Virus record (IMG/VR): IMGVR_UViG_2690316121_000006
Origin: a virus
Lineage: Duplodnaviria; Heunggongvirae; Uroviricota; Caudoviricetes
Length of the DNA stretch: 64,000 nucleotides
Reading direction: 5' to 3' (one strand)
Positions 20,748 through 20,999 of the stretch are shown piece by piece. Each line of letters starts with the position of its first letter. Within the stretch, counting starts at the first letter, position 1. The position numbers were made by a program, and so were the translations under genes. The notes under the pieces were generated by a model. The model was not told the DNA's origin and did no database searches. It saw nothing but the letters and a program-made list of their open reading frames with translations.

Positions 20748-20999
20748 TGACTATATGCGATAGCGAGAAGTTGACTATAGGCGACATTCGTTGACGCTGG
20801 TGGATTTTTGCTGGCGTCAATATTCTGCAAGTCGCTATTGAGATGGCTTTTAGGGTCATTTCATCGCGTATAGTCAACGTTTCTCCCGACAATATCTTAC
20901 ATAGTCGATTTTTGGTGGAGTTAAATCGACTACAGTCAACTTTTGACTGTAGTCACATCGCGCATAGTCAACTATTCACATTAACTTTCGCGCATAGTC
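20748..20999. repeat. iteron array in both orientations (incA-like copy-control locus)
   Basis: About nine copies of the TTGACTAYAKGCGA core, direct and inverted; contains a Chi octamer GCTGGTGG. Confidence 0.65.

Follow-up and report, generated by a model that had tools for sequence, protein, structure and literature searches.

Abundance and layout of Chi sites in a 64-kb stretch of a P1-type phage-plasmid and their likely role in RecBCD-RecA circularisation of injected DNA

The Chi richness of the bacteriophage P1 is said to have been noted already in the P1 genome paper of Lobocka et al. 2004 (J Bacteriol 186:7032). Following this 2004 genome paper, Chi was described as over-represented in P1 with 50 identified sites, as stated in a later article (PMC10028697), and the density corresponds to one site per 1.90 kb (PMC12315714). 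There are 31 Chi sites on the top strand of P1, the sites being dense toward the genome ends and sparse in the genome's central part (bioRxiv 10.1101/2021.07.08.451572). P1 DNA is packaged rightward from pac in about four headfuls with terminal repeats of 5-10 kb, and it follows from this headful geometry that the virion ends are found no farther than 20-40 kb from pac, where Chi is dense (bioRxiv 10.1101/2021.07.08.451572). The yield of P1 is decreased about 20-fold, and no plaques are formed, with recA mutants, recBC null mutants and recC mutants of the Chi-recognition tunnel (bioRxiv 10.1101/2021.07.08.451572; PMC12315714). The Chi sites of P1 are less bound to the coding strand and to the reading frame than those of E. 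coli, and the phages P7, D6 and NGUA22 display the Chi features of P1 (bioRxiv 10.1101/2021.07.08.451572). Subramaniam and Smith concluded that Chi is directly selected as a hotspot for the circularisation of injected DNA (bioRxiv 10.1101/2021.07.08.451572). The core picture of the Chi richness of the P1 family is already published; to this picture we add a second distant relative, the Cronobacter phage JK004 with 103 Chi sites, the observation that sites turn over from one lineage to another, and a bias in orientation that may exist upstream of pac.

As a general rule, Chi is over-represented in phages that encode no recombinase themselves (Bobay et al. 2013, PMC3784561). The Chi-rich lambdoids without Rec module (such as LLS, PMC12315714; PMC3784561) over-represent Chi while having neither recombinase nor RecBCD inhibitor of their own. 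Their sites are packed toward a packaging end, in the interval from the origin to the packaging site, and the proposed role is the RecBCD-promoted recombination of linear DNA into circles and concatemers. Unlike the P1 type, these phages belong to an unrelated family with cos or a different pac packaging, and nearly all their Chi sites are in the single active orientation whereas both orientations are abundant in the P1 type (8:15 in the stretch of 64,000 nucleotides analysed here, hereafter the window, and 31:19 in P1). The E. coli chromosome contains the same octamer, recognised by the same enzyme with the same orientation rule (Chi is recognised from its 3' side), with a baseline of about 1 Chi per 5 kb (PMC3784561) versus 1 per 2.8 kb in the window. 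In E. coli, 79% of Chi sites are on the coding strand and 68% are in the CTG|GTG frame, whereas the genic sites of the window are divided into 10 sense and 11 antisense sites, with 7 of 21 in this frame.

The window belongs to a phage-plasmid of the P1 type. Positions 19221-82006 of P1 (NC_005856) are colinear with it in reverse orientation, with 97.5% identity over 52 kb. Plasmids present in 735 of 5426 complete E. coli genomes match the window region 18000-24000 with identities up to 99.2%; these plasmids have a size of about 100 kb and are about 99% identical to the window. The matches among phage records are P1, P7, SJ46, RCS47 and JL22, and these phage relatives come from Escherichia and Salmonella. 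The P1-type homologues found in the window include repA-parA-parB, repL, ban, dmt, sit, the S/U tail-fibre genes and darA. The pac site, lox/cre, c1 and the Chi-densest zone are located outside: on the map of the near-identical plasmid NZ_CP148417.1, window position 1 has pac some 15 kb to its left, and the window displays only the flanks of the Chi pattern around pac.

The annotations of P1, NZ_CP148417.1 and D6 list neither a recombinase of the phage nor an inhibitor of RecBCD. A Pfam scan of 10 of the about 74 window ORFs detected neither recombinase nor RecBCD inhibitor, and in this respect only an RdgC homologue. This homologue is full-length (Pfam E = 8.5e-98), is encoded at 16060-17079 on the minus strand and corresponds to hrdC of P1. 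RdgC modulates RecA. Together with the Chi load, the RdgC homologue suggests that the phage tunes the recombination pathway of its host instead of replacing it.

A search on both strands detected 23 exact matches to GCTGGTGG (Chi) in the window, 8 on the plus strand and 15 on the minus strand. This corresponds to 1 site per 2.8 kb, or to 1 per 2.0 kb when the Chi-free stretch is left aside. The initial annotation had reported Chi at about 20798, 25062, 32492 and 61762. These are four real plus-strand sites, whose positions had been given with a shift of 1-4 bp; they begin at 20796, 25066, 32493 and 61761, and the interval flagged as 20798-20805 should read 20796-20803. The presence of Chi at several places was thus an understatement, since four more plus-strand sites and all 15 minus-strand sites had been missed. 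The sites were also said to be scattered through the element; they are found over much of the window, but unevenly, with none across 33818-52330. The sites and the Chi-free stretch are as follows (sense and antisense refer to the gene that contains the site).

376..383, minus strand: Chi, equivalent to P1 81624 (plus strand in P1), antisense in a plus-strand ORF
875..882, minus strand: Chi, equivalent to P1 81125, sense in the ppp homologue, in frame A-L-V-E
4244..4251, plus strand: Chi, equivalent to P1 77756, sense in the gene 25 homologue, left site of a face-to-face pair 14 bp apart
4258..4265, minus strand: Chi, equivalent to P1 77742, antisense in the gene 25 homologue, right site of the face-to-face pair
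4385..4392, minus strand: Chi, equivalent to P1 77615, antisense in the gene 25 homologue
7023..7030, minus strand: Chi, equivalent to P1 74977, antisense in the gene 6 homologue
7495..7502, plus strand: Chi, equivalent to P1 74505, sense in the gene 6 homologue
10240..10247, plus strand: Chi, equivalent to P1 72035, antisense in the ban (DnaB-like helicase) homologue
11559..11566, minus strand: Chi, equivalent to P1 70711 (tciB region), conserved in D6 too
14577..14584, minus strand: Chi, equivalent to P1 67891, sense in the dmt methyltransferase homologue
18221..18228, minus strand: Chi, equivalent to P1 64247, antisense in the upfB homologue
20796..20803, plus strand: Chi, the flagged site, absent from P1, intergenic
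25066..25073, plus strand: Chi, equivalent to P1 58155, sense in the major capsid gene 23 homologue
32493..32500, plus strand: Chi, equivalent to P1 50712, intergenic between kilA and repL; in P1, 14 bp upstream of the repL/oriL region
33810..33817, minus strand: Chi, equivalent to P1 49395, sense in the ant1 homologue, final site before the Chi-free stretch
33818..52330, no strand: Chi-free stretch of 18.5 kb, 0 sites, equivalent to the Chi-poor middle of P1 (31.9-49.4 kb)
52331..52338, minus strand: Chi, equivalent to P1 31884, sense in the cin invertase homologue, conserved in D6 too
55900..55907, minus strand: Chi, absent from P1, antisense in the darA homologue, present in NZ_CP148417.1
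56721..56728, minus strand: Chi, equivalent to P1 27494, antisense in the ddrB homologue
58316..58323, minus strand: Chi, equivalent to P1 25899, antisense in the ddrB homologue
61544..61551, minus strand: Chi, equivalent to P1 21669, sense in the isaA homologue
61761..61768, plus strand: Chi, equivalent to P1 21452, antisense in the ssb homologue
63773..63780, plus strand: Chi, equivalent to P1 19441, antisense in the pro homologue, facing its partner 55 bp away
63828..63835, minus strand: Chi, equivalent to P1 19386, sense in the pro homologue, partner of 63773

The genic sites (21 of the 23) occur in all frames, 10 in sense and 11 in antisense, and the two remaining sites are intergenic. 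The frame x-CTG-GTG-G is used by 7 of the 10 sense sites (7 of the 21 genic sites). Judged from the octamer, the individual sites would act in the window by orientation-dependent nicking and RecA loading. Face-to-face Chi pairs with a spacing of up to 150 bp are no more numerous than expected by chance in any of the genomes compared. The facing pair 14 bp apart (GCTGGTGGcgcagtCCACCAGC), at window positions 4244-4265 inside the homologue of the gene 25 tail protein, is kept in P1 (77742-77763), in NZ_CP148417.1 and in the Cronobacter phage JK004, about 74% identical (L008 37427-37448); it is the only notably conserved close Chi pair.

The site at 20796 is included in a replicon segment (19653-21916) having no nucleotide homology to P1. 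A variant RepA of the Rep3 family is encoded at 19860-20744, and the Chi site begins 52 bp past the stop codon of this repA variant, flanked by copies of the iteron TTGACTATAnGCGA, direct and inverted. In the plasmid NZ_CP148417.1 this site is conserved. Nine copies of the iteron are present upstream of, inside and downstream of repA, and TTGACTAT is consequently among the most over-represented octamers of the window. Between the inc-type iterons and parA, a gene for a nuclease of the T5orf172 / GIY-YIG family is located at 21037-21846 on the plus strand; P1 has no gene at this place, and NZ_CP148417.1 also contains it. From its predicted family, this gene may represent a homing-endonuclease-like insertion in the maintenance region.

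The number of Chi sites is far above the random expectation for the composition of the window. Dinucleotide shuffles (n=100) gave 1.61 ± 1.23 Chi, with a maximum of 5, for 23 observed. The expectations of Markov models of order 0 to 6 are 1.5, 1.7, 3.0, 4.6, 6.3, 9.1 and 14.8 Chi, respectively, the models of highest order being built largely from sub-words of Chi itself. Among the approximately 25,000 octamers observed in the window, Chi ranks first both by raw count and by z-score (16.4 versus order 1 and 8.6 versus order 3). The second octamer, TGCTGGTG, overlaps Chi and is present in 19 copies; this ranking, with Chi at the top and TGCTGGTG as runner-up, is the one published for P1. Copies of a repeat element or of an IS were considered as a source of Chi and ruled out: the 10-nt flanks of the 23 sites are heterogeneous and share no common motif.

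Chi is also the top octamer of the four P1-type genomes compared with the window. P1 contains 50 Chi in 94.8 kb (31 on the plus strand and 19 on the minus strand), the near-identical relative of the window, the complete plasmid NZ_CP148417.1, has 58 in its first 100 kb versus the 50 of P1, and D6 has 53 in 91.2 kb. The Cronobacter phage JK004 (MZ188976.1, G+C 0.54) contains 103 Chi in 93.8 kb, its second most frequent octamer being half as numerous. The overall density is 1 per 0.9 kb and rises to about 1 per 0.55 kb over the first 30 kb of the packaged side (55 sites). No mention of JK004 was found in the Chi literature consulted. In all four genomes, the packaged side has, over the 30 kb next to pac, a density of about 1 per kb or more (between 1 per 0.55 kb and 1 per 1.25 kb) with a balanced orientation, and the largest Chi gaps are localized 28-71 kb from pac.

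All the 21 Chi sites of P1 in the covered range are retained in the window. At 2.5% divergence, about 3.2 changed octamers would be expected among these 21 sites and none was changed (P = 0.033). Two sites of the window are additional to those of P1. One is 55900, where the aligned P1 octamer is CCACCAAC, one base from Chi; the other is 20796, in the Rep3-family replicon variant with its own iterons. Between D6 and P1 there is a turnover of sites. Only 6 of the 53 D6 sites are at positions common to P1, and 45 of the 53 are included in DNA without detectable nucleotide homology. Since few D6 sites are shared with P1, the Chi density is maintained in each lineage independently of the inheritance of the sites.

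The stretch 33818-52330 contains ant/sim, tub (tail tube), sit, the baseplate genes, the tail-fibre genes R/S/U and the invertible segment. From the density in the rest of the window, 9.4 Chi are predicted in this stretch and none is seen (Poisson P = 9e-5). We counted in the window genes the positions where a synonymous choice would allow Chi on either strand without changing the protein. There are 85 such positions and Chi is carried at 21 of them (25%), namely at 0 of 21 inside the stretch versus 21 of 64 outside (Fisher P = 0.0012). An active avoidance of Chi was ruled out, the absence of sites being in agreement with an unselected baseline of 0.5-1.8 (P = 0.17-0.61); the gap is therefore a region without enrichment and not a region of depletion. 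P1, with which the window shares its Chi-poor middle, shows the same gap (31.9-49.4 kb). The module of D6 that contains the tail-fibre, baseplate and sit genes is also nearly Chi-free, at a different distance from pac, so that the history of the module may partly explain the gap. The G+C content within the gap of the window is 0.39-0.47, with 0.39 at 34-38 kb. Module history (horizontal exchange and low G+C) may thus add to the distance from the DNA ends in shaping the gap.

The orientation of Chi was analysed in the four genomes oriented on pacA, with 30 kb on each side of pac. The pac site of D6 could not be located by nucleotide homology to the pac of P1 and was placed by analogy about 277 nt inside pacA; the classification does not depend on where in the pacA gene of D6 the pac site is put, as the interval 2674-4217 is free of Chi. 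The favoured orientation is the one recognised by a RecBCD enzyme moving away from pac. On the unpackaged side, the numbers of sites in the favoured and in the other orientation are 14:5 in P1, 17:5 in NZ_CP148417.1, 13:4 in D6 and 23:8 in JK004. When the three independent lineages (P1, D6 and JK004) are combined, the ratio upstream of pac is 50:17 (binomial P = 7e-5), and it is 53:52 on the packaged side (Fisher P = 0.002 for the contrast between both sides). In the window, 8 of the 11 Chi sites of the first 18.3 kb (1-18.3 kb) are on the minus strand, that is in the favoured orientation, and 5 of these 8 are antisense to their genes. The pac-upstream bias is partly confounded with gene orientation; it is a lead and not a result.

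We consider it likely that the 23 octamers function as Chi in this phage-plasmid of the P1 family and are selected for the RecBCD-RecA circularisation of injected DNA. A high Chi density would be kept by selection because this family, without known recombinase or RecBCD inhibitor, depends on the RecBCD and RecA proteins of the host. The dependence of P1 growth on RecBCD and on Chi recognition is taken from the literature, as are the packaging direction and the headful number; circularisation as the selected step is what we infer. Headful cutting of the concatemer from pac would make each injected molecule linear with a direct terminal repeat. RecBCD would load at both ends of this molecule and unwind it inward until it meets a Chi site from its 3' side, where it would nick the DNA and load RecA on the Chi-tailed 3' strand. 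This strand would then invade the repeat at the opposite end and produce the circle used for plasmid lysogeny and for lytic replication. As RecBCD would enter at both ends, Chi would be needed in both orientations. There are counterpoints, besides the fact that the window covers only the flanks of the Chi pattern. The 30 kb upstream of pac, Chi-dense and biased in orientation (50:17), are not predicted by circularisation alone, and the Chi gap may be due in part to module history and not only to the distance from the DNA ends.

Synonymous-codon shuffles that keep the proteins and the codon usage of each gene (n=1000) gave 6.2 ± 1.85 Chi with a maximum of 13, and none of the 1000 shuffles reached 23; with codon-order shuffles the expectation is 4.5. 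These values argue against a passive origin of the excess, in which frequent codons (CTG, GTG), Leu-Val dipeptides and amelioration to the oligonucleotide usage of the host would produce Chi as a by-product of coding and composition, without selection on Chi itself. For the E. coli chromosome such an origin has been put forward in the literature (bioRxiv 10.1101/2021.07.08.451572), and it agrees with the 7 of 10 sense sites in the frame x-CTG-GTG-G and with the higher-order Markov expectations of up to 9-15, though those models absorb sub-words of Chi. For the window we judge it extremely improbable. Chi is realised at 25% of the permitted positions, whereas 60 control words composed of the same letters have a median of 1.7% and do not exceed 9.8%; 11 of the 21 genic sites are antisense, two sites are intergenic, and a coding stretch of 18.5 kb with 21 permitted positions contains no Chi. 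Amelioration cannot explain the Chi density because it is about twice that of the host chromosome (1 per 5 kb). The Chi excess is not a coding artefact, and the by-product reading is effectively refuted by the codon shuffle and by the permitted-position test.

The selected function may lie in another step than the circularisation of injected DNA. The initial annotation had suggested that Chi may protect the linear replicating phage DNA from RecBCD. Linear forms do exist, namely the injected terminally redundant virion DNA and, during lytic growth, the concatemers and the pac-cut ends, but the P1-type prophage replicates as a circle. The enzyme and the signal had been correctly named, while the role favoured in the literature is recombination by RecBCD-RecA stimulated by Chi, between the terminal repeats, instead of a passive protection. 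In such a protective function, RecBCD would enter at a free rolling-circle tail or at an unpackaged pac-cut end, and an oriented Chi would turn off destruction and return the end to recombination-dependent replication, by which concatemers would be preserved; Chi would then mainly guard the linear replication or packaging intermediates of lytic growth. We regard this main role as possible but rather unlikely. The bias of 50:17 upstream of pac compared with 53:52 on the packaged side speaks for it, as do the 8 of 11 sites in the favoured orientation in the first 18.3 kb of the window, 5 of these 8 being antisense. RecBCD has an inhibitory effect on rolling-circle replication unless the enzyme is blocked or Chi is present, and Chi-rich lambdoids cluster their sites between replication origin and packaging site (PMC3784561). 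However, the sense strand corresponds to the favoured orientation for 63-85% of the pac-upstream coding bases and Chi has an overall sense preference of 60-80%, so gene orientation explains the bias of D6 fully and those of P1 and JK004 in part. The published analysis calls the Chi orientation of P1 'nearly random' and argues that protection is a misreading because the formation of high-molecular-weight DNA needs RecA (bioRxiv 10.1101/2021.07.08.451572). The balanced and densest Chi cluster, on the packaged side, is also left unexplained by protection. A second, directional layer of Chi (about 3:1), which would stop RecBCD entering at the pac-cut end in the approximately 30 kb upstream of pac, is in our opinion an unlikely addition; if it is true, these sites would be selected separately in lytic growth, for rescue of the non-packaged end of the concatemer or of the rolling-circle tail. 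The minus-strand run 376-18221 of the window would then belong to the pac-upstream array, as a lead only. The protection of rolling-circle tails and of pac-cut ends is plausible as an additional or secondary role. The change of Chi orientation at oriR (about 19.7 kb in the window), with 8:3 for the minus strand on the left and 3:1 for the plus strand immediately on the right, would agree with a function in replication repair of the plasmid prophage, similar to that on the chromosome, where Chi co-oriented with replication lets RecBCD-RecA mend, from the sister copy, the one-ended breaks left by collapsed theta forks of oriR. Co-oriented Chi amount to 23:12 in the arm of P1 to the right of oriR and to 15:6 in the arm of D6 to the left of repA, but the other replichore is unbiased (7:8 in P1 and 14:18 in D6) and the window sites at 52-64 kb run 6:2 against the predicted orientation. 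A Chi density above that of the chromosome is left unexplained by replication repair, which seems to us quite improbable. It is moreover inseparable from the pac-end model, because the arm showing the bias runs from oriR to pac. An E. coli-like replichore orientation around oriR was tried and rejected: only one arm fits, the oriR-pac one, and the test is not discriminating.

The window has a confirmatory value: it comes from a wild P1-like E. coli plasmid that keeps every Chi site of P1 in the covered region and has gained more. The turnover of Chi sites with maintenance of their density supports a direct selection on Chi as a recombination signal of the phage, and the P1 family is one of the few cases where direct selection on Chi can be argued cleanly. 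The density and layout of Chi may affect the establishment in new hosts of P1-derived phagemids and of P1-like phage-plasmids carrying resistance.

The octamer TTGTTGAT is present in 18 copies in the window for 3.6-5 expected, with a bias of 14:4 to the plus strand (for example at 5335, 7041, 23406, 25188, 42900 and 57276). Most of its copies are genic and read as xTT-GTT-GAT, and there are 17 copies in P1 and 18 in D6. Its abundance is probably an in-frame coding bias.

Three other segments of the window have no homology to P1. The segment 29816-31708 stands in place of the pmgF-rlfB-rlfA region of P1 and contains, at 31033-31548 on the minus strand, an ORF for an outer-membrane beta-barrel protein of the Ail/Lom family (Pfam E = 1e-22 to 4e-25), which, on the basis of this family assignment, may be a lysogenic-conversion gene. 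The segment 35278-37932, with a low G+C content (0.39), replaces the sim region and encodes an SH3-domain protein at 36764-37831. Finally, the segment 48245-51989 corresponds to the variable tail-fibre C-terminal and assembly region. It contains Caudo_TAP at 50713-51270 and a Gp34-type trimerisation domain at 51277-51978, and these predicted domains indicate a host-range module unlike that of P1.
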